From UHGV virus genome UHGV-0257810: a DNA stretch of 18,664 nucleotides; one strand, written 5' to 3'. The first letter of the stretch is position 1; each line of letters opens with the position of its first letter. This document shows, one piece after another, positions 6,192-18,485 of this stretch. Below the pieces are notes generated by a model. It worked only from the letters and a program-made list of their open reading frames with translations, ran no database searches and was not told where the DNA came from. A program made the translations under genes and the position numbers. The stretch comes from a virus.

Positions 6192-6669
6192 TTTAGTTCT
6201 TGCGGCATTACGTAAGCTCGGTGTGGCATCAAATGCCACGTTAACCGATGTCGAACCGCAGTCTATGGAAGACGGCGTCAACGACCTTGAAATGATGATG
6301 GCTGAATGGCTTGGCGGTGATGTGTCACCTGGTATCAACGTTGGCTACATTTTCGCTGATGCAGATGTCGCTCCAGATCCGGGCGATGAGCACGGTTTAT
6401 CAAATAACGCTATCAATGCTGTCATTTTCAACCTTGCCTGCCGCATTGCACCGGATTATGCGCTGGAAGCGCCTGCAAAACTTATAACCACTGCCAGATA
6501 CGGGAAAGAGCGACTCGTCAAACTGTCTGCAATGGACAGAGCAAAAGCCGCTAAATGTAAGTCCGGTTATCCAAACCGTATGCCTGTTGGTAGCGGTAAC
6601 CAGTTGGCGAAGTGGAACGGTTGGAATTACTTCTACCGGAAGGAACCTTGCGATAACGGGAGCGAATAA
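6169..6669 (+). CDS. Head completion / tail accessory factor (P22 gp4 type)
   Basis: 166 aa from ATG 6169, the length I recall for P22 gp4. The N-terminus [33 protein letters not shown] resembles the P22 gp4 N-terminus as I remember it. The longer track ORF from 6088 reads the EP repeat in another frame and is rejected. Stop TAA overlaps the next ATG. Confidence 0.8.
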
Positions 6670-8088
6670 ATGCCGGTTCAGCAACTTCCGCTTATGAAAG
6701 GTGTCGGCAAAGATTTCCGAAACGCCGACTATATCGACTATTTGCCAGTGAATATGCTGGCTACACCAAAAGAAATACTCAACAGCAGCGGATATCTTCG
6801 CTCATTCCCGGGCATTGCCAAACGTTCTGATGTGAACGGAGTATCGCGAGGCGTCGAGTACAACATGGCGCAGAGTGCTGTTTATCGCGTGTGCGGGGGC
6901 AAGCTGTATAAGGGCGAAAGCGAAGTCGGTGATGTTGCCGGAAGTGGTCGTGTATCAATGGCACATGGTCGGACATCACAGGCGGTAGGCGTTAATGGTC
7001 AACTGGTCGAGTATCGCTATGATGGCACGGTTAAAACCGTCTCAAACTGGCCGACAGACAGCGGATTCACTCAGTATGAGTTAGGTTCAGTCCGCGACAT
7101 TACACGCTTACGTGGGCGTTATGCGTGGTCAAAAGACGGCACGGATTCATGGTTTATCACTGACCCTGAAGACGAATCGCATCCTGACCGTTACAGCGCA
7201 CAATATCGCGCAGAATCGCAGCCGGATGGCATCATCGGTATCGGCACATGGAGAGACTTCATCGTCTGCTTTGGTTCATCGACGATTGAGTATTTTTCCC
7301 TGACTGGTGCAACCACAGTTGGTGCTGCTTTGTATGTCGCACAGCCATCGCTGATGGTGCAGAAAGGCATTGCTGGGACTTACTGCAAAACGCCATTCGC
7401 TGATTCTTATGCGTTCATCAGCAATCCGGCAACAGGTGCGCCGTCTGTATACATCATCGGCTCCGGTCAGGTATCACCAATCGCCAGCGCGAGCATTGAG
7501 AAAATTCTCCGCTCCTACACTGCTGATGAACTGGCTGATGGTGTGATGGAGTCTCTGCGATTTGATGCGCATGAGCTGCTGATTATCCATCTTCCGCGCC
7601 ATGTTCTGGTGTACGACGCATCTTCAAGCGCCAATGGTCCGCAATGGTGTGTACTGAAAACAGGCCTGTATGACGATGTGTACCGCGCTATCGACTTCAT
7701 TTACGAAGGCAATCAGATAACGTGTGGCGATAAGCTGGAATCTGTTACCGGGAAATTGCAATTCGATATCAGCAGCCAGTATGGGCTTCAACAGGAACAC
7801 CTGCTGTTTACTCCACTGTTCAAAGCGGATAACGCCAGATGCTTCGATCTGGAGGTTGAATCATCGACTGGTGTCGCTCAGTACGCTGACCGCCTGTTCC
7901 TCTCTGCAACCACTGACGGAATCAATTACGGACGTGAGCAGATGATTGAACAGAATGAACCGTTCGTTTACGACAAACGCGTTTTGTGGAAGCGAGTAGG
8001 GCGCATCAGGAAAAATGTCGGCTTCAAATTGCGCATTATCACGAAGTCACCTGTCACTCTGTCAGGCTGCCAGATAAGGATTGAGTAA
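6670..8088 (+). CDS. Head completion / tail hub protein (P22 gp10 type)
   Basis: 472 aa, the same length as P22 gp10, in the conserved position between gp4 and the tail needle. Start and stop are coupled to both neighbours. Confidence 0.85.
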
Positions 8089-11427: not shown

Positions 11428-13821
11428 ATGGCTAATTACCGTGATTTGTTAGAGCAGGCTGGCGCACGTTACGGTGTGCCAGAAGGGTTGATGACTGCAC
11501 TGGGTGCCAAGGAGTCTTCTTACAACCCTGCCGCAGTAAGCTCCGCCGGGGCTGTAGGATTGACTCAGGTCATGCCTGGGACATGGCGTGATATGGGTTA
11601 TACCGATGAGCAAATGCAAAACCCCGAATATCAGGCTGACGCTGGCGCGCGCTATCTGGCAAAGATGTACCAGCAGTTTGGTAACTGGCGTGACGCTCTT
11701 CAGGCTTATCACGACGGTCCCGGCAACGTTATGAAGGCAAAGCGTGGTGAATATACGCCAGGACCTGAAGGCCGCGGTTACGTTGATGATCGCTTTGCTC
11801 AATGGGCGGGTGACCCGGTGACAGACTCAACAGTCGAACAGCGCGCCACCTCTGCAAAGGTACATCCTCAGCAAGACCCTAACAACCCGTTTGCACAACT
11901 GGAAGCACAGTCATCCGAACAAGTATCGGCATCAGGCGTGCAGTCAGACCAAAATAATCCATTTGCTCAGATTGAGCAGCAGGCAGCCAGTCAGCAGCCA
12001 CCTCAACCCGTAAGTTCTGTCGCACCGAAACCTGTTCAGCAGCAAGGCGGAATAATGTCTGACCTTGGTAATGGACTTGCTGAAACCGGGCGCGGCTTAC
12101 TACAGGCAGGAATCAACGTAGCGAACATACCTGCTGAACTCACTGATGCTGTAACAAGCGCGGCGGCTTGGGCTGGAGGTAAACTCGGCATTGGCGATGG
12201 TACATATCAACCAGCACCACGAGTAACAACGCAGGGATTAGAGCAGGACTTTGGCCTTCAGCAAGGCGCGCTGACTCCACAAACGACAGAGGGAAGGGTA
12301 TTTGCTGAAGCATTGCCTTACCTCACTCCTGCTGGCGTTGAGAGAGCGGCAACACAGGCACCAACACTTGCTGGTCGAATTGCTCAGGGTGCAACTCGTC
12401 TTCTAGCAGAAAACGCAGTTGGATCACTTGCTGCAAACAGTGCGAAAGATGATGCGGAAGCACTCGCCACCGATTTAGGCGTTGGTGTGCTGGCTGGCGG
12501 TGCTATTAACGCTGCCGGACGTGGATTAGGTGCTGCTTATCGTGGTGTTCGTGGTTCGATAGCACCAGAAGCTCAACAGGCTATCAGGTTTGCAGAGCGT
12601 GAAGGAGTTCCTCTGCACACCACAGACCTGTTACAGCCTACTTCCCGCGTCGGGAAAATGGCGCAGACTACAGCAGAAAATATCCCCCTGGCTGGCACAA
12701 GCGGAATGAGAGCAACGCAACAGGAAGCGAGAAGCCAGTTGGTGCAGAGATTTGCCGATAAATTCGGTGAGTATGATCCAGCGGTTGTTATTGACAGCCT
12801 TAAAGCGAAAACATCAGGAATTCGTCGTGCCGCCGGTAATCGACTGGAGCAGGTTCAGAATGCTATGGCTGGAGTAAACATTCAGCCTGCGCGAGCAATT
12901 CAGCAGATTGATACAGAAATATCTAATCTGCAGAAGCTTGGTAAGGTCGCCGATAACGAGACTATTTCAAAACTTCAGTCCTATCGTGATGAGCTTGTTC
13001 GCAATGCTGGTCCTGATGGTCCGGTAAATCTGGATTTGAAGCAATTAAGCGATCTGCGCAGCCAGTTCAGAATGGACGTGAAGGGGGAACGACCAGTGTT
13101 GCCAAACCGTTCCGATGCTGCCATTCAGCGCGTTTACAAGGCGATGACAGACGATATCAATGGTGCCATTGGTCAGAATCTTGGCAACGATACTCTCCGT
13201 AAATATCAGCAGGCCAATGCCGTCTACGCTGACGAAGCGGCGAAACTAAAGAATACCAGGCTGAAGAATGTTCTCATGAAAGGCGACCTGACGCCGGAAG
13301 TTGTCAACAACATGCTATTCAGCAAGAACAAATCGGAAATTAAGACGCTGTATAACTCAGTTGGTCGTGTTGGCAGGGCGCAAATGCGCAATGGCATCAT
13401 TGGAAAGGCGATGGAGAAATCAGGTGGTTCCCCTGACCAGTTCCTTCGGCAGCTTAACATCCTGCAAAACCAGACTGGCATCACATTTAAGGGGCAGGAC
13501 GCTGCTTATCTGAAAGGATTAAAAAACTATCTGCAATCCACGCAGCAGGCTGCAAAAGCGGCAGTAACAACACCCACAGGGCAGCAAACTATCCCGTTCA
13601 TTATTGGGTATGGGACGGCAATGAACCCGGCGACAACTGGCACAGCAGTAAGCTACGGACTTCTTACTCGCGCCTATGAGAGCGAGCCATTCAGAAATGC
13701 AATGCTCCGAATGGCAAACACCCCACGCGGATCGACAGCGTTTGAGAAAGCCATGCAGCAAGCGCAAAAAGCGATTAATGCACTGACGCAGGGTGCTAAG
13801 TCTGATTCGTTGTCAGAATAG
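11428..13821 (+). CDS. Ejection protein, P22 gp16 type, with N-terminal SLT-family lytic transglycosylase domain
   Basis: 797 aa, against 609 aa recalled for P22 gp16. The first ~120 aa carry family-1 lytic transglycosylase motifs (catalytic-type ES in GAKESSYNP, then AVGLTQVMPGTW, then AYHDGPGN). A linker follows with a duplicated NNPFAQ-x-E-x-Q motif, then a long Ala/Gly-rich body in the gp16 position. Confidence 0.85.
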   Translation: MANYRDLLEQAGARYGVPEGLMTALGAKESSYNPAAVSSAGAVGLTQVMPGTWRDMGYTDEQMQNPEYQADAGARYLAKMYQQFGNWRDALQAYHDGPGNVMKAKRGEYTPGPEGRGYVDDRFAQWAGDPVTDSTVEQRATSAKVHPQQDPNNPFAQLEAQSSEQVSASGVQSDQNNPFAQIEQQAASQQPPQPVSSVAPKPVQQQGGIMSDLGNGLAETGRGLLQAGINVANIPAELTDAVTSAAAWAGGKLGIGDGTYQPAPRVTTQGLEQDFGLQQGALTPQTTEGRVFAEALPYLTPAGVERAATQAPTLAGRIAQGATRLLAENAVGSLAANSAKDDAEALATDLGVGVLAGGAINAAGRGLGAAYRGVRGSIAPEAQQAIRFAEREGVPLHTTDLLQPTSRVGKMAQTTAENIPLAGTSGMRATQQEARSQLVQRFADKFGEYDPAVVIDSLKAKTSGIRRAAGNRLEQVQNAMAGVNIQPARAIQQIDTEISNLQKLGKVADNETISKLQSYRDELVRNAGPDGPVNLDLKQLSDLRSQFRMDVKGERPVLPNRSDAAIQRVYKAMTDDINGAIGQNLGNDTLRKYQQANAVYADEAAKLKNTRLKNVLMKGDLTPEVVNNMLFSKNKSEIKTLYNSVGRVGRAQMRNGIIGKAMEKSGGSPDQFLRQLNILQNQTGITFKGQDAAYLKGLKNYLQSTQQAAKAAVTTPTGQQTIPFIIGYGTAMNPATTGTAVSYGLLTRAYESEPFRNAMLRMANTPRGSTAFEKAMQQAQKAINALTQGAKSDSLSE

Positions 13822-13911
13822 CCTTTCAAACACCAGGAACGTGCAAAAACCAAATATGTAGAACGCGAGGTTTATCGTATCCCTCTGCATAGGCGATACC
13901 TTTGCTGATTG

Positions 13912-14397
13912 TTATCTGATGTTACTGCTACTGTTGCATGTGACTGTATTTCCAAACCCTGAATTGCAGTTTGTGTAAGTGTCAACTCGTGTTGGATAGG
14001 GTTGAGTTATAACAGGCTGTCTCGCTTTTTGCTCGATCGCTTGCATTGTGTTTACAGCCTGATAATTCAATAAAGCCTGCTGGAATGCTTGGCTTTGTGC
14101 TATTTGTTGTGCTTGTTCTTGGCTTTGTAATTGAACATAAAGATTCTGAAGCTCAAGTCTTGCCTGTGCGTCACTTATCTTGCCTTCATCGACACCTTGC
14201 CCGAGCATCTTTGCAGCAAGGACATACAGTTTAGGTGTTGGTGCTGATGCCATGCGTGAGTCGTTCTTCACACTGGCATCAAGGCAATTAGCCATATCGC
14301 TAAGCTTTTGATAGCGTTGTTCGCAACTTGCTTGATAGTCACTTACTTTTGCGCATCCAACCAGCAGAAGCGGGATAATTAACAGTGATTTTTTCAT
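13912..14397 (-). CDS. Predicted lipoprotein of unknown function (accessory, moron-like)
   Basis: Start taken at the internal Met (ATG 14397-14395) because AAGGAGAG lies 8 nt upstream and it yields a classic signal peptide with lipobox (MKKSLLIIPLLLVGC). The mature ~137 aa has a Gln-rich helical segment and a Cys-containing C-terminus. Local GC is visibly lower than the flanking structural genes. Confidence 0.7.
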   Translation of the reverse strand: MKKSLLIIPLLLVGCAKVSDYQASCEQRYQKLSDMANCLDASVKNDSRMASAPTPKLYVLAAKMLGQGVDEGKISDAQARLELQNLYVQLQSQEQAQQIAQSQAFQQALLNYQAVNTMQAIEQKARQPVITQPYPTRVDTYTNCNSGFGNTVTCNSSSNIR

Positions 14398-14454
14398 ATG
14401 GTTAACTCTCCTTAGTTTTTCACAGGATAGCATGAAGGCAATGCCATTTTAGCC

Positions 14455-14482
14455 GGAAACTAGATTTCTATGTTTCCTTTTT
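14455..14482 (+). terminator. Possible plus-orientation hairpin with T-run, overlapping the mnt stop codon
   Basis: GGAAAC (14455-14460), 11-nt loop, GTTTCC (14472-14477), then TTTTTATTATT on the plus strand. On the minus strand the hairpin is not followed by a U-tract, so it would not terminate the mnt transcript. Confidence 0.3.
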
Positions 14483-14734
14483 ATTATTGCTATACATGGT
14501 CTTAAGCGTTTCAAAAACCATTTTCTTAACCATATCAGATTGTTGTTCTGCCATACGCTCTGCATCGTCAATGTAAACGGATGCAGAGCTTTGTTTAGAC
14601 AACGATTCTTCAATCGCTGCAATTATCTCTGAGTTCAGCGATCTGTTATTCATCTTCGCACGCTGCTTAATTTTCGCGTGGAGTTCATGCGGAAGTCTCA
14701 AGTGAAACTGCGCCTCATCGTATTTGCTGTACAT
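14468..14734 (-). CDS. mnt: Mnt-like ribbon-helix-helix (Arc/MetJ family) repressor
   Basis: FHLRLPHELHAKIKQRAKMNNRSLNSEIIAAIEESL is a canonical RHH DNA-binding motif. The C-terminus AERMAEQQSDMVKKMVFETLKTMY parallels the P22 Mnt tetramerisation tail as recalled. Start chosen at ATG 14734 (GAGG 8 nt upstream, 88 aa); the first in-frame ATG at 14767 would give 99 aa. Confidence 0.85.
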   Translation of the reverse strand: MYSKYDEAQFHLRLPHELHAKIKQRAKMNNRSLNSEIIAAIEESLSKQSSASVYIDDAERMAEQQSDMVKKMVFETLKTMYSNNKKET

Positions 14735-14807
14735 CCTTGATGCCTCACCAGTTGGGTGGAATGGCATCGTAACCTACTGGATAAATACTCAATAGTACCA
14801 TTTCGGT

Positions 14808-14830
14808 ATGCAATCACATCATGGTTGCAT
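14808..14830. promoter_or_regulatory. Inverted repeat ATGCAA-N11-TTGCAT in the mnt/tailspike divergent intergenic region (candidate operator)
   Basis: Read directly: ATGCAA at 14808-14813 and its reverse complement TTGCAT at 14825-14830, about 30 bp upstream of the tailspike start and between two divergent genes. Function is not established. Confidence 0.25.
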
Positions 14831-14855
14831 CATATCATTCGTCTGGAGAAATGAA

Positions 14856-16937
14856 ATGTCAGATATCACCGCAAATGTTGTGGTAAGCATGCCTTCGCAA
14901 CTCTTCACTATGGCTCGTTCTTTTAAAGCCGTAGCCAATGGCAAAATTTATATCGGTAAAATTGACACTGACCCGGTAAATCCAGAAAACCAGATTCAGG
15001 TTTATGTAGAGAACGAAGAAGGCTCTCATGTTCCTGTATCGCAACCAATCATCATTAACGCTGCTGGATATCCGGTATATAACGGACAGATTGCCAAGTT
15101 CGTAACTGAGCAAGGCCATTCTATGGCTGTTTATGATGCGTATGGGGCGCAGCAGTTCTATTTTCCGAATGTTATAAAGTACGATCCAGATCAATTTAAA
15201 CAAGAGTTATCTAGTAATTCTGGAGCTTCATTAATAGGAACAGAGTCAGGAAAAACTGTTCAGGATGAATTGGATGAAATAGATAGAGATATTTCTCTTA
15301 ACAATATTTTATCTCATGAAAAAAATAGATTTAACTTTATCTTTTCACACTACTACAAACGTACTTTTAATAATGATTTAAGACTGCAATTACAGAGCTA
15401 TGTCGATGGGATTTATAATTTTGCCCCCAAAAGCGTATCTCTACCCAGTGGAAGATTAGTAACTATCTATACGGTAAAGGAAGGTGCCAATTCTGACCCC
15501 GGACAAGATGGTACCCCAATGCATATTGACTTCATGATTTCCGACGATAACGGGGTCAACTGGACGCAAACAGGTACTGTAGTTAATAAGGGTGTAGGTT
15601 ACGCTACATCTGAAACAATTCTATTCCTCAATAACAATGACGGGTATCTGTACTGTTTTTTCACTTCAATGAAGGGTATAACCGGATGGGGTCACGCCCA
15701 GCAAGGTACAGACCCGGACACCACATCCACCATTGAGTATTGCGTATCTAAAGACCGCGGAGAGACATGGAGCGCGCCGGTCGATATTACAGCAGCCGTT
15801 AAGCCCGCAGGTGCGTATTTTTCATCTATCGCACCGACGCAAGCAGGATATATTAATGGTAGACCAGCGATACCCTATTACTACCTTACTACTATTTCCT
15901 CCGGGATTGTAGAAGGGTATATAACTACAGATGACGATGGAAACTACATTTACGGTGGAGATGTCAGGAAAGACACCGATGTCGATACGCTAGGAACTTC
16001 TGGCGGCGAGATTGGATTTGGCAATTTCTATGATGGAACACCTTTTGCAATTGAGCGTGCTGCCGACACAACAATCAAACCGTATAAAATCGCAATACAA
16101 AAGCTATTAATGCAAGATTCTAGTGGGAAGTGGATTGTAAAAGGACAGTTCCCTACCACTGACTGCATGGCCTCTTTTTTAAGAGTTGGTCCTGATTTTG
16201 GGTTTGATAAAGATTATCTGTTTGTGGTGGCACCAATAGGATCAACAGGACAATTTGAAGGAAGGGCTAACCTTAGATTATTTGATTGCACTAACGACTT
16301 TAATAATCCTGTTGATAAGGGCATGTTATCTGTTAGTGCTGTTGTTGAAACAGGGTATAGCTCAACTGTTCTTTTATCATCCGGGGCGATGATGAGCGTG
16401 TGGAATGGGAGACAATGGACCGTCAACAACTCTATTTATACCGTAAACAGGCTTGTAGGTAATAATGTTATACCAGTACCTTTCTGTGGAACGCTTAAAA
16501 TAGTAGACACTAACAGAACTTTCTCACAGGATATATTCGTTAACGAGCGTGTTATTGGTATTGCTGACGGGATAATGTACCGGTGGACAGGATCGGATTT
16601 TGTTAGGGAAAATGCGGCGATACCATCGAAAATAAATTCAGTTGTCTCAACGCTTAACGCCGACATGGCAGACTTGTTTTATCTTGATTCATCGTCTTCA
16701 GGTTCGACATTAACCAGTATAACCGGTGGATATATAGGTAAAACAATACGTATACTGCCACTTTCATCACTTACAGAAGTTACCCTTGTAAAACAGGCAC
16801 CCGGCGTTTCTGTTAATGACAGAATAATGTACAATACGTCGCCTAGTGTTACTAAGTACAAAACAAATGGGGAGCTTATACAATTGACTAAAACTAACTA
16901 CGGATGGTATCTGGATAAATCAGCAAACAGTGTTTAA
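14856..16937 (+). CDS. Tailspike: P22-type head-binding domain fused to an Asp-box-containing receptor-binding domain
   Basis: Start at ATG 14856 with GGAGAA at 14845-14850. The N-terminus [13 protein letters not shown]...[20 protein letters not shown]...YDPDQF matches the P22 gp9 head-binding domain as recalled (first ~113 aa). Downstream sequence is unrelated to P22 and contains Asp-box motifs SDDNGVNW (15540-15563) and SKDRGETW (15747-15770). GC drops sharply just after the YDPDQF junction (~15195). Confidence 0.9.
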
Positions 16938-17055
16938 CAAGCATTAAATAATCTCCGCTGGTATATAGAAATGCAGCGAATTTGTACAAATAAATAGTTT
17001 TACTTATTAGTTAATGCGCTATGCTATTTAATAGCTTGCATGCTGGAAACATGAA

Positions 17056-17077
17056 GCTTTGCATTCGTTTGCAAGGC
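17056..17077. terminator. Weak hairpin between convergent tailspike and int 3' ends
   Basis: GCTTTGC (17056-17062), 8-nt loop, GCAAGGC (17071-17077), with one G-U pair and short flanking T-runs. Lies in the 154-bp AT-rich gap between the convergent stop codons. Confidence 0.2.
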
Positions 17078-17091
17078 TTTGTGCTGCTTCC

Positions 17092-18249
17092 CTATGACAC
17101 CTTCTCATCAAGCCAATCCGCCCACCACTGCATCATTTCTCTGCGCTTATCGAGATACTGAGCATGGTTGTAAATCCCGCGCACAGAACCGCCGTTGGCA
17201 TGTGCCAGTTGCACTTCAATAGCGTCAGCAGGCCATTCGTGCTCGTTCATAATCGTGCTGAATTCATGCCTGAATCCGTGACCGCTTTCCAGACCCTCAT
17301 AGCCGATTTGTTTGATCACAAGTAGCACCGCGTTCTCGCAGATTGGCTTTTTCTTATCGTTGCGCCCGGCAAAAACAAACTCTGATACTGGTTTGGTGAT
17401 TGAGCTTAGCGTAGTGAGAAGTTCAACTACCTGGTCTGACATAGGAACTACATGAATTTTGCGTCCCTTCATCACACTGGCGTCGATGGTGATAATCCTG
17501 TTTTCAAAATCGACGTTCTTCCATAGCATAGAGCGAAGCTCTTTCGTTCTTAGGGCTGTGTAGCGTAAAGCTTTGGTCGCAATGAGCGATACGATACTTC
17601 CTGAAAATGTTGCCAGTGCTTTGTTGAATGCCGGGATCTGGTCTGCAGGAAGAAACGGGAAGTTCTTCTTGCGGTATCCCTTCATGGCGTCAGCAAGGTC
17701 AGGTGCTGGGTTATATTTAGCCCTGCCGGTGACAATAGCGTAACGGAAAACCTCGCCGCATCTTCTGCGGGCTTTGTTGGCTCGCTCCATTGCACCGCGA
17801 TCTTCGAATCTGCGGATTACTTCCAGCAGTTGCATCGGCTCAATATCCTGAATCTCAAGACCACCGATGATGGGTAAAATGTCGTCATCAAACATTTTGG
17901 CAAGTTCAGTTGCATAGCCTACTGACCAAACTTGCTTCTTGTGCTCGTACCATTCCTTGTAAATCGCACTAAATGAATTGTTGTTAGACGAAGCCTTTTT
18001 CGCCTTTACCGGATCGATGCCAACCGAGATGTCTTTCCTCGCGGTCCATGCTTTATCCCTTGCTTCCTGCAAAGTCATAAGCGGATATTTTCCGACGGTC
18101 AGGATTTTCTCCTTACCGTCAATCTTGTAGCGAAGCTGCCACACCTTTTTCCCGGATACAGGGACATAAAGGTACAGGCCATTACCATCGAGAAGGCGGT
18201 ATGGTTTTTCTTTCGGCTTTGCTGCTTCAATCTGCTTAACGGTGAGCAT
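17092..18249 (-). CDS. int: Tyrosine integrase, P4-like family
   Basis: N-terminal AAKPKEKPYRLLDGNGLYLYV arm-binding-type motif, and C-terminal HGFRHEF...VRGIYNHAQY consistent with a tyrosine recombinase catalytic region. The gene is transcribed away from the adjacent tRNA. Start chosen at ATG 18249 (MLTVKQIEAAKPK..., 385 aa); the track ORF extends to a GTG at 18285. Confidence 0.9.
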   Translation of the reverse strand: MLTVKQIEAAKPKEKPYRLLDGNGLYLYVPVSGKKVWQLRYKIDGKEKILTVGKYPLMTLQEARDKAWTARKDISVGIDPVKAKKASSNNNSFSAIYKEWYEHKKQVWSVGYATELAKMFDDDILPIIGGLEIQDIEPMQLLEVIRRFEDRGAMERANKARRRCGEVFRYAIVTGRAKYNPAPDLADAMKGYRKKNFPFLPADQIPAFNKALATFSGSIVSLIATKALRYTALRTKELRSMLWKNVDFENRIITIDASVMKGRKIHVVPMSDQVVELLTTLSSITKPVSEFVFAGRNDKKKPICENAVLLVIKQIGYEGLESGHGFRHEFSTIMNEHEWPADAIEVQLAHANGGSVRGIYNHAQYLDKRREMMQWWADWLDEKVS

Positions 18250-18410
18250 GGGTAAAAATCCGGTTGGTAAAATTATTTTATCCACTTTTTACCCGTCATG
18301 GAGTGCGGCTGTCAACGATCTGAAGCGAACCATGACGAACTGTGAATCTACGGAAGGCTTGATATTCAGGGGGTTTTGCGGACTGGTACGGATGGGAGCG
18401 AACTGATAAA

Positions 18411-18485
18411 TGGTGTCCCCTGCAGGAATCGAACCTGCAATTAGCCCTTAGGAGGGGCTCGTTATATCCATTTAACTAAGAGGAC
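18411..18485 (-). tRNA. argW: tRNA-Arg (anticodon CCU), argW-type; prophage attachment site
   Basis: Reverse complement folds as a 75-nt cloverleaf: acceptor GUCCUCU/AGGGGAC, D-stem GUUA/UAAC, anticodon stem AGCCC/GGGCU with loop CUCCUAA, T-stem GCAGG/CCUGC with loop UUCGAUU, discriminator A and CCA. Sits directly upstream of the integrase. Confidence 0.9.

Follow-up and report, generated by a model that had tools for sequence, protein, structure and literature searches.

An orphan mnt gene divergent from a tailspike gene: probably a P22-type immI region without arc, sar and ant, with a Mnt that regulates itself

Background

What does a Mnt repressor do in a place where arc and ant are missing, and why is it kept there? 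In a P22 prophage Mnt keeps ant off. In the stretch of DNA analysed here, the 18,664 nucleotides of UHGV virus genome UHGV-0257810 (the window), a mnt gene diverges from the tailspike gene and is separated from it by a short intergenic region (Table 1). The original prediction left two options: either this Mnt controls an antirepressor elsewhere in the prophage, or it regulates something in the region, such as the tailspike, itself or the neighbouring lipoprotein gene.

The arrangement had been put forward as unusual, which it is not. Of 5,426 complete E. coli genomes, 241 (about 4%) share this mnt-tailspike junction, and orphan mnt genes beside the tailspike have been drawn and discussed since 2008. 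Villafane et al. (2008, PMC2629481) described mnt-only 'ant morons' in ST64T, ST104 and Para1 and included the E. coli B7A prophage in their figure 3; this prophage carries the junction of the window and matches the region at 95.9%. In phage L, too, a mnt homologue is kept and arc and ant are missing (Zaworski et al. 2020, PMC8022706). The mnt-only layout beside the tailspike is thus already known and in itself of modest weight.

Table 1. Features around the mnt-tailspike junction (window coordinates; a dot marks features without strand)
Feature	Position	Strand	Remarks
Lipoprotein gene	13912..14397	-	161 aa; lipobox LVGC in the signal peptide; co-oriented with mnt and 70 nt downstream of it
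Candidate extended -10 of the lipoprotein gene, TGcTATCCT	14424..14432	-	PWM 7.0 bits
mnt coding sequence	14468..14734	-	88 aa including stop; Arc-type ribbon-helix-helix DNA-binding domain and Mnt C-terminal tetramerisation helix
mnt 5' leader with what is left of the P22 Pant -35 and Arc operator after decay	14735..14786	.	PWM; comparison with P22
Predicted Pmnt -10, TACGAT	14766..14771	-	PWM scan
Predicted Pmnt -35, TTGAGT	14787..14792	-	Positional homologue of P22 TTGAGA
Putative Mnt operator, GTACC-ATTTC-GGTAT	14795..14809	.	Imperfect palindrome, centre 14802; positional homologue of P22 operator AGGTCCACGGTGGACCT
Inverted repeat ATGCAA-N11-TTGCAT	14808..14830	.	Left arm abuts the putative operator; right arm in the tailspike leader
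Tailspike leader	14812..14855	+	Shine-Dalgarno GGAG at 14845-14848; variable module
Tailspike gene	14856..16937	+	P22 head-binding domain, then sialidase/BNR-like receptor-binding part

The protein and its missing partners

By its sequence the gene is a true Mnt homologue, with an Arc-type domain as well as the tetramerisation helix. The N-terminus matches the Arc-type ribbon-helix-helix domain (Pfam PF03869 Arc, 3.9e-15, for the minus-strand ORF 14468-14767), and residues 68-92 of the 99-aa form match the Mnt C-terminal helix (PF11423 Repressor_Mnt, 4.1e-12). Among known structures, PDB 1mnt is matched over residues 6-78 (2.1e-19) and the tetramerisation domain 1qey at 1.1e-6; identity to P22 Mnt is 49%. 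Similarity to 1qey and Repressor_Mnt suggests that the protein may form a tetramer (a dimer of dimers). Some databases name these proteins "partition protein ATPase", which is wrong.

The gene likely starts at the ATG at 14734 (MYSKYDEAQ..., 88 aa) rather than at 14767. The former aligns with the N-terminus of P22 Mnt and is the type of start that NCBI PGAP annotates in most relatives examined, a longer 95-aa form being given in strain XB2. The in-frame ATG at 14767 falls within the predicted -10 of the mnt promoter, and a comparison by eye showed that in ST64T and in the L129/Serratia variants the upstream ATG either is not in frame or has a stop after it; it is probably not used. With the start at 14734, the intergenic gap to the tailspike is 121 bp. 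The 88 bp given originally are correct when counted from the first in-frame ATG, but not from the likely start. The broader point, that this Mnt is an orphan and that neither arc nor ant would fit beside it, holds for the 121-bp gap as well.

Indeed, tblastn with the Arc and Ant proteins of P22 and E. coli 55989 returned nothing below E = 0.01 in the window. For sar RNA, a scan of the whole window at the Rfam gathering threshold returned a tRNA-Arg and nothing else; since no ant 5' end lies in the window, there is nothing for sar to overlap. A search of the rest of the prophage for ant had also been proposed. It was run on the window and on a related complete prophage, in which no ant or arc is found by annotation, by tblastn or by a Pfam scan of its unnamed proteins; since the window does not extend into the left arm of its own prophage, the statement that there is no ant elsewhere rests on this relative, which is 96.9% identical to the window over 90% of its length.

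The strong rightward promoter is gone too. Our PWM scan recovered P22 Pant at 16.7 bits and P22 Pmnt at 14.3 bits as controls, whereas the best rightward candidate in the region scores 6.9 bits and is not positionally conserved among variants. An Arc operator between Pant hexamers is not recognisable in the window. Comparison with P22 shows that the P22-type Pant and the Arc operator have decayed and that the mnt promoter has been retained. Some likeness to P22 persists in the mnt leader when the sequences are compared by eye (CTACT...CTCAATAG). The leader also holds a second inverted repeat, GATGCC-N18-GGCATC, at 14739-14768. We also considered that the tailspike might have a rightward promoter of its own where Pant once lay. 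TGnATAAAT-like sequences are partly conserved there; they are without the key -11 A and score poorly, and we rejected them as the main reading. Of a complete immI (mnt-arc-sar-ant), then, the window has mnt and an operator homologue, and arc, ant, sar and a strong Pant are all absent.

The mnt promoter and a likely operator

The predicted Pmnt of the window (TTGAGT-15-TACGAT) scores 8.5 bits, which places it in the top 0.02% of the window, and a Pmnt is retained in all orphan mnt loci at 8.5-11.7 bits. The -10 region (GCATCGTAA) is unchanged in six divergent variants, Serratia included. The spacer is 15 bp in the window versus 17 bp in the 135-bp variants, ST64T and Gally; it is suboptimal, and this counts against the reading that we prefer below.

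As the candidate operator, the inverted repeat ATGCAA-N11-TTGCAT had been suggested. The repeat is present, but 34-38% of shuffles of the region contain an inverted repeat with perfect 6-bp arms no more than 20 nt apart, and the right arm of ATGCAA-N11-TTGCAT is missing at its position from the 132-bp and 135-bp variants as well as from those of L129 and Serratia. The repeat is broken on one side in seven relatives, with no compensating change. We therefore rejected it: such a repeat is no more than chance would give, the right arm is part of the variable tailspike leader, and the seven breaks are uncompensated.

The conserved element is GTACC-N5-GGTAT, and comparison among related loci makes 14795-14809 the likely Mnt operator. 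It has a symmetric core TACC-N5-GGTA, with symmetry limited to 4+4 positions, and lies directly upstream of the Pmnt -35, with the predicted Pmnt start about 43 bp downstream. The operator centre is 10 bp away from the 5' end of the -35, in P22 and in the window alike; the frame relative to the CAAT (-35) motif is the same as in P22, ST64T and Gally, and the geometry xxCC-N5-GGxx is common to all. Thus a two-fold symmetric element beside the divergent mnt promoter region, as expected of the P22 Mnt family (about 17 bp), is present at the position equivalent to that of P22, though it is imperfect. It is kept in E. coli, Salmonella and Serratia variants while the DNA to its right is swapped, and in the six divergent variants conservation ends a few bases to its right.

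Protein and site also change together. Three classes pair the recognition strand with the half-site: DPHFNFRMP with GGTCCAC in P22, DPQFNLRLP with AGACCAC in ST64T and Gally, and EAQFHLRLP with GTACCAT in the window type. This co-change supports the putative sequence-specific binding of Mnt to 14795-14809. The residues which we take to be those of recognition in P22 Mnt, R2, H6, N8 and R10 (in part after works cited in PMC3413123), correspond to Y, Q, H and R in the window protein.

How specific is this element to the locus? No second copy exists in the window or in 48.5 kb of the related prophage, so that the local copy is the only one there. Looser matches to xxCC-N5-GGxx are scattered and without promoter context; we judged them to be chance and rejected them as further operators. 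At least 115 of 119 IMG/VR loci with the operator motif carry a window-type mnt immediately to its left. A search of 185,579 species genomes with a 17-base operator pattern gave 51 matches, about the chance number, and the genuine ones were found only in E. coli and Serratia. Polymorphism within a type says little here: a G-to-T change in the right half-site occurs in 6 of 143 close relatives, and in the 121-bp type every position varies at about 0.5-0.7%, which is too low to show selection on the operator. For that purpose only comparisons between types discriminate, not polymorphism within a type.

Expression of the tailspike and lipoprotein genes

The identity of the tailspike is not in doubt (Pfam Head_binding 2.1e-65, BNR_2 9e-7). 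Its leader is swapped wholesale in at least four other variants, and the 135-bp variants have the P22 gene 9 leader ('boundary sequence', CCGTAGCCATGCTGCGGCGATTCCTTGCATCTGGAGCAAATTAA) in place of that of the window. A gene 16-like transglycosylase gene ends at 13821, and no terminator-like site between it and the tailspike is found in 13700-15000. Read-through of the late operon is most likely how the tailspike is expressed. The idea that Mnt directly controls tailspike initiation finds no rightward promoter comparable to P22 Pant on which to act. The putative operator sits 47 bp upstream of the tailspike ATG. A minus-strand promoter candidate, CTGACA-17-AATGAT, lies within the first tailspike codons and is unconserved in other variants.

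On the other side of mnt, the description of two co-oriented genes with a 70-nt gap and no evident terminator proved accurate. Co-transcription of the lipoprotein gene with mnt is possible because there is no terminator, and is not required, given the candidate -10 of its own. TGnTATCCT is also conserved upstream of the lipoprotein gene in VSe13, in which that gene has no mnt beside it and its upstream neighbour runs in the opposite direction. The gene occurs without an adjacent mnt in Gally and 720R6 and is missing in Sf101-type loci; it is an independent accessory gene ('moron'). It belongs to phrog_6067 (unknown function, 1.6e-110), and our searches for its function gave no Pfam or PADLOC match and no meaningful NCBIfam match.

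The preferred reading

In our opinion, the locus is probably an immI region without arc, sar and ant, a mnt-only 'ant moron' variant with a self-regulating Mnt. The three genes would have been lost from a P22-type immI, probably through deletion, with the regulatory half remaining. One locus (L172) is compatible with such a loss of arc and ant by deletion: there a window-type operator is joined to the end of a P22-like ant, of which the last ~110 codons and the terminator remain. A Mnt tetramer would bind the single site at 14795-14809, about 43 bp upstream of its own transcription start, and would thereby set its own expression from the prophage, possibly with read-through into the lipoprotein gene, while the tailspike would be transcribed by read-through of the late operon rather than from a local promoter under Mnt control. 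Of the targets offered originally, Mnt itself fits this anatomy, a single operator homologue lying directly upstream of the Pmnt -35. The operator of this reading is assigned by comparison of sequences.

Why is mnt kept?

A Mnt with itself as its only cis target would not explain why selection preserves it. All 86 of the 86 related mnt copies are intact. Against the VSe13/55989 type, pN of the N-domain is 0.073 versus a pS of 0.70-0.75, and pN/pS in the DNA-binding domain is about 0.1, with synonymous divergence saturated. The gene is under purifying selection. For its retention we have two leading guesses of similar weight, a tuning of late transcription into the tailspike and an action in trans on relatives.

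The first guess, which we hold tentatively, is that Mnt has taken on a new local use as a gate on the tailspike: it would limit or time the transcription that enters this gene, by a roadblock, by sustained convergent transcription from Pmnt or by repression of a weak residual rightward promoter. In every context seen, whether beside gene 16, the lipoprotein gene or VSe13 orf15, mnt and its operator are directly upstream of a tail gene. In 55989-type prophages the pair sits to the right of a separate complete mnt-arc-ant module, and the tail gene that follows it in Serratia has another N-terminus. For P22, an influence of this region on the frequency with which late transcription gets as far as the tailspike has already been suggested, with Mnt and Arc possibly involved (Villafane et al., PMC2629481). 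However, no credible rightward promoter is left; the tailspike leader is freely exchanged, with the boundary just to the right of the operator, so that operator and leader are not co-evolving. The constant adjacency may equally be a matter of history, for mnt adjoins the tail gene wherever arc and ant are missing.

The second guess, likewise doubtful, is that Mnt serves as a trans-acting immunity: it would silence the ant promoter of superinfecting or co-resident P22-like phages with the same operator and so shield the main repressor from foreign Ant. This agrees with what Mnt does in the P22 prophage and would account for the purifying selection that an orphan repressor undergoes. The antirepressor of one prophage can act in trans on another (PMC12922286), and L172, where what remains of a P22-like ant adjoins the operator, is compatible with operator and ant having once been linked. 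Against it, none of about 117 genuine IMG/VR occurrences of the operator is upstream of arc or ant; all face a tail gene, as do those partial matches in E. coli that were examined. In the 55989 type, moreover, the ant module comes with a Mnt-like repressor of its own, another than that of the window, and with another palindrome. Among about 120 IMG/VR loci and those rows of E. coli that were examined, no phage with a window-type operator before arc-ant turned up, and the lack of such an extant phage weakens the idea.

Two further possibilities are very improbable. Control of an antirepressor elsewhere in the same prophage draws on the left arm outside the window and on relatives (55989-type) with ant in the same region, but the closest complete prophage is without Ant and Arc and its only operator copy adjoins mnt, while ant in those relatives comes with its own repressor pair. 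That mnt is a functionless remnant of a decaying immI was raised for phage L by Zaworski et al. (PMC8022706) and would suit the decayed ant promoter and Arc operator, as well as a Kapi1 lysogen without detectable mnt expression (PMC12922286; that mnt is distant and has arc-ant, so there is no direct transfer); we disfavour it in view of the intact copies, the low pN/pS, the promoter hexamers and operator that are invariant from E. coli to Serratia while the flanks are replaced, and the recognition strand and operator that change together in three classes.

Implications of the hypothesis

From E. coli to Serratia the protein is conserved along with its promoter and its operator. This is not a decaying orphan, and the published question "new function or remnant?" therefore leans towards function. 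It is conceivable, though we think it unlikely, that mnt and its operator form a conserved control module beside the tail gene, independent of any antirepressor, which gates or tunes tailspike transcription through a roadblock or convergent Pmnt. We entertain this because the unit is kept beside the separate complete module of the 55989 type and before the unrelated tail gene of Serratia; if true, it would be a new function for a classic repressor. The three matched pairs of recognition strand and half-site could serve as a natural specificity series for DNA recognition by ribbon-helix-helix proteins. For annotation, 14795-14809 should be given as the likely operator rather than ATGCAA-N11-TTGCAT.

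Comparison with known systems

With immI of P22 the window shares a homologous Mnt (49%, both domains), the same genome location and the same geometry of Pmnt and operator. It differs in having no arc, sar or ant and no recognisable strong rightward promoter or Arc operator; operator sequence and recognition residues are different, and the window operator overlaps no rightward start site.

The E. coli 55989-type prophages have an identical Mnt recognition strand and the same operator core, which likewise faces the tailspike. Unlike the window, they carry a separate complete module to the left, consisting of a 106-aa Mnt-like repressor, Arc, a Bro-N/P22_AR_C antirepressor and two ORFs, with its own palindrome GGTTCTAGAACC. 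The C-terminal half of their Mnt is unrelated to that of the window (pN 0.41), and their spacer is 135 bp with a P22-type gene 9 leader.

The closest group is that of the mnt-only 'ant morons' (ST64T, ST104, L, SE1/ST160, Sf101, IME10, B7A). ST64T, L and ST160 differ from the window in their recognition strand DPQFNLRLP, paired with a perfect palindrome AAGACCACCGTGGTCTT, and in having the gene 9 leader in the standard form of P22; the mnt genes of ST64T and ST160 diverge from gene 9 at a distance of 135 bp, and Sf101 has the same layout. The window, by contrast, belongs to the EAQFHLRLP class and has a site that is imperfect, a spacer shortened to 121 bp (identical in 72 of 80 IMG/VR loci), another tailspike leader and the lipoprotein gene downstream. 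The Mnt type of the window recurs in Sf101, IME10 and B7A, with identities of about 90% and above. The window nevertheless fits the group in position, between the gene 16 homologue and the tailspike and transcribed against the late operon, and in content, with mnt, one gene whose function is unknown, and no arc or ant. As in the window, mnt in the group is divergent, lies 121-146 bp from the tailspike without arc, sar or ant, is often accompanied by one extra gene of unknown function, and has a palindromic operator beside the Pmnt -35.

Organization of the region

The window represents a prophage right arm of P22-like (Lederbergvirus) type, and its host flank is matched by all complete E. coli genomes. 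Two minus-strand genes, mnt and a lipoprotein gene, lie after the ejection block and before the tailspike gene. In close relatives, int is separated from the tailspike gene by a gene for an O-antigen acyltransferase or by gtr; the corresponding interval here (16938-17091) has neither.

Features of the prophage arm and of the mnt-tailspike region
Feature	Position	Strand	Remark
Terminase, portal, scaffold, coat, head-completion and ejection genes	up to 13821
Lipoprotein gene	13912-14397	minus	70 nt downstream of mnt
Candidate extended -10 of the lipoprotein gene	14424-14432		TGcTATCCT, 7.0 bits
mnt ORF	14468-14767	minus	more likely start 14734 (88 aa)
Inverted repeat GATGCC-N18-GGCATC	14739-14768
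Predicted Pmnt (mnt promoter)	14766-14792		TTGAGT-15-TACGAT, 8.5 bits
Predicted Mnt operator	14795-14809		centre 14802
ATGCAA-N11-TTGCAT	14808-14830
GGAG	14845-14848		precedes tailspike start
Tailspike gene	14856-16937
Tailspike receptor-binding part	15216-16937
IntS-type integrase gene	17092-18285	minus
tRNA-Arg(CCU) gene	18411-18485		prophage integration site

The mnt gene

The original prediction of a Mnt-like repressor is well founded: the ORF product is a genuine homologue, with Pfam Arc (3.9e-15) and Repressor_Mnt (4.1e-12) domains, 49% identity to P22 Mnt, and matches to the solved DNA-binding (1mnt, 2e-19) and tetramerisation (1qey, 1e-6) domains. In our opinion, sequence comparison makes the ATG at 14734 a more likely start than the one at 14767. 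The former is in register with the N-terminus of P22 Mnt and corresponds to the PGAP start in most relatives examined (in strain XB2 a longer, 95-aa protein was called). The latter overlaps the predicted Pmnt -10, and its equivalent in ST64T and the L129/Serratia variants, whose sequences we read by eye, is either in a different frame or blocked by a stop. The gap of 88 bp to the tailspike gene, as proposed earlier, is correct if counted from 14767, but the start at 14734 makes it 121 bp.

We reject the idea that the gene is a functionless remnant. All 86 of 86 collected copies of mnt are intact, and Pmnt and the predicted operator are kept across genera while the adjacent DNA has been swapped. 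For the DNA-binding domain, comparison with the VSe13/55989 type gives pN 0.073 against pS 0.70-0.75; closer mnt pairs give 0-0.009 against 0.08-0.27. Mnt is therefore intact and under selection, and its promoter is conserved.

As an aside, the RefSeq phage records of P22, ST64T and Sf101, as well as phrog_795, label Mnt a 'partition protein ATPase' or 'chromosome segregation ATPase', which for a repressor of 83-88 aa is a propagated misnomer.

The predicted operator

The annotated Mnt operator of P22, ctcaatAGGTCCACGGTGGACCT, lies just right of the Pmnt -35 and overlaps the start of Pant, the rightward ant promoter. We lined up the regions upstream of mnt from P22, epsilon34, CUS-3, ST64T, ST160, Gally, VSe13, Sf101 and the window. 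All but CUS-3 have a palindrome of P22 geometry, xxCC-N5-GGxx, at a constant offset behind a CAAT motif, the complement of TTG in the Pmnt -35. The contact residues of Mnt are 2, 6, 8 and 10. Three classes can be distinguished, in each of which a recognition strand is paired with an operator half-site. That this N-terminal strand sets Arc/Mnt specificity is the conclusion of Knight and Sauer (1989) and Raumann et al. (1995), as cited in PMC3413123.

Mnt recognition strands and their operators
Class	Members	Recognition strand	Operator
A	P22, epsilon34	DPHFNFRMP	AGGTCCAC-G-GTGGACCT
B	ST64T, ST160, Gally	DPQFNLRLP	AAGACCAC-(C/A)-GTGGTCT
C	window, Sf101, VSe13, 55989	EAQFHLRLP	(A/C)GTACC(A/G)TTT(C/A/T)GGTATG

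In P22 and in the window alike, 10 bp separate the 5' end of the Pmnt -35 from the operator centre. When six divergent variants were aligned (the types with gaps of 121, 132 and 135 bp, 55989, L129 and Serratia marcescens), the Pmnt -10 GCATCGTAA and CAAT-GTACC-TTT-GGTATG-AA were invariant. Conservation was lost a few bases right of the operator; from there on, the variants carry at least four unrelated tailspike leaders. The motif occurs once in the window and once in a 48.5-kb segment that contains a whole related prophage. What we see, then, is one imperfect palindrome, a predicted operator, kept at the P22-equivalent position.

A different candidate, ATGCAA-N11-TTGCAT, had been suggested originally. 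The repeat is indeed present, but perfect 6-bp inverted repeats with spacers no longer than 20 nt turn up in 34-38% of shuffles of the region, so its presence by itself is no evidence. Its left arm is the right flank of the predicted operator; its right arm is part of the tailspike leader, which is exchangeable, and other variants lack it at this position. In seven close relatives one arm is altered, and none of them shows a compensating change in the other. We do not consider it an operator.

A second repeat, GATGCC-N18-GGCATC, extends across the ribosome-binding region of mnt as well as the Pmnt -10. Throughout classes B and C, Serratia included, both arms are unchanged and the sequence between them differs; one simple explanation could be that the Shine-Dalgarno sequence and the -10 are constrained independently.

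Promoters

A simple position-weight scan, whose top hits in P22 are Pant (16.7 bits) and Pmnt (14.3 bits), finds a Pmnt homologue in every orphan: besides the window, VSe13 and 55989 (9.2 bits), ST64T (10.5) and Gally (11.7). The 121-bp type has a spacer of 15 bp, in contrast to 17 in the 135-bp variants, ST64T and Gally, because of a 2-bp difference, GTAACC versus GTAAAACC. This version of Pmnt may be weaker or more Mnt-dependent. As for a rightward promoter, the best score in orphans is at most 6.9 bits at positions that are not conserved, and neither the P22 -35 TTGACA nor the Arc operator is recognisable in them. Terminator-like sites were found neither between gene 16 and the tailspike gene nor between mnt and the lipoprotein gene. 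Most simply, the tailspike gene would be expressed by late-operon read-through, as in P22.

Possible roles of Mnt

On sequence grounds, we suggest that a Mnt tetramer would bind the predicted operator, about 43 bp upstream of its own transcription start, and so would set its own level in the lysogen. It would have no other target in cis, and the tailspike gene would be transcribed late.

Two further roles deserve modest and similar weight. Mnt could tune or gate transcription entering the tailspike gene, as hinted for P22 by Villafane et al. (PMC2629481). In all contexts examined, the mnt/operator unit precedes a tail gene, even beside a second complete module, as in the prophages of E. coli 55989 (L093, 1480-4228) and XB2 (L094), where class C mnt still faces the tailspike gene, and even in Serratia marcescens. 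In this last locus (L217, about 6385-6830) class C mnt and operator are conserved; after them come a rho-independent terminator and a tail gene with an N-terminus unlike the P22 head-binding type, and to their left there are an Arc-like gene and an ant homologue. However, the rightward promoter is gone and the tailspike leader is freely exchanged. Alternatively, Mnt could confer immunity in trans against relatives in which ant is preceded by the same operator. The idea makes biological sense, yet phages of this kind were not found: of about 117 genuine occurrences of the class C operator in IMG/VR, not one precedes arc or ant.

That Mnt controls an antirepressor elsewhere in this prophage, as originally entertained, is unlikely. 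The absence of arc and ant beside mnt was correctly recognised: tblastn of the window with P22 and E. coli 55989 Arc and Ant gave no match, and for sar the only Rfam match is the tRNA. The closest complete prophage, in E. coli JNE082640 (90% of the window at 96.9% identity, same argW site), has no antirepressor or Arc by annotation, tblastn or Pfam scan of unnamed proteins. An antirepressor (Bro-N plus P22_AR_C) does occur in about 25 of 119 operator-bearing IMG/VR loci and in E. coli 55989 and XB2; there it sits left of class C mnt in a separate complete module of a 106-aa Mnt-like repressor, Arc, Ant and two ORFs, with its own palindrome GGTTCTAGAACC. In one IMG/VR locus (L172) the end of a P22-like ant, its last ~110 codons and its terminator, is joined to the class C operator and the 'boundary sequence' of gene 9. 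It resembles an arrested intermediate of deletion or recombination, and the junction is compatible with arc-ant loss by either route.

The role of orphan Mnt is a real but minor question, now easier to test since the likely operator and promoter have been located.

Neighbouring genes

The 70-nt gap between mnt and the lipoprotein gene and the lack of an evident terminator were described correctly. There may be read-through from Pmnt, but co-transcription is not required. The lipoprotein gene is an independent accessory gene. It is present in Gally and 720R6 without neighbouring mnt and missing from Sf101-type loci, and homology to Gally stops about 18 nt upstream of its ATG. Its candidate extended -10 is kept in VSe13, where the upstream neighbour is on the opposite strand.

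The tailspike protein has a P22 head-binding domain (2.1e-65). An ORF call places its start at the in-frame ATG 14808, within ATGCAA-N11-TTGCAT; we reject this start, as the 16-codon extension is absent in other variants and lacks a ribosome-binding site. The receptor-binding part is of BNR/Asp-box, GH33 sialidase-like type (BNR_2, 9e-7; PDB 4fj6, 3e-5) and differs from the CUS-3 endosialidase. Beyond about 15240 no megablast match to it was obtained among 50,697 phage records and 5,426 complete E. coli genomes, and it may represent an uncommon receptor specificity. In four related loci (L108, L123, L176, L214), HNH homing-endonuclease genes of 166 or 179 aa are inserted on the minus strand directly after tailspike codon 5 (window equivalent ~14870), with a fresh tailspike start behind; two different HNH genes share one insertion point.

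Relation to known phages

The layout is common and has been described before, and the first impression that it is unusual was mistaken. The mnt 5' end, 121 bp and the tailspike 5' end are contiguous in 241 of 5,426 complete E. coli genomes, and the distance to the tailspike start is exactly 121 bp in 72 of 80 IMG/VR loci encoding this Mnt. ST64T and ST160 have a 135-bp gap between mnt and divergent gene 9, without arc or ant, and a comparable arrangement is seen in Sf101, Gally, vB_EcoP-720R6 and VSe13. The name 'ant moron' was given by Villafane et al. (2008, PMC2629481) to the variable DNA that separates gene 16 from the tailspike gene, which in ST64T, ST104 and Para1 consists only of mnt and one gene of unknown function; their figure 3 includes the E. 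coli B7A prophage, which matches this region at 95.9% (H49). Phage L has the same layout as the window according to Zaworski et al. (2020, PMC8022706), who asked whether its mnt 'could have acquired another function ... or be a remnant'. The region is an ordinary, already described variant of P22 immI, the mnt/arc/sar/ant region, or 'ant moron'.
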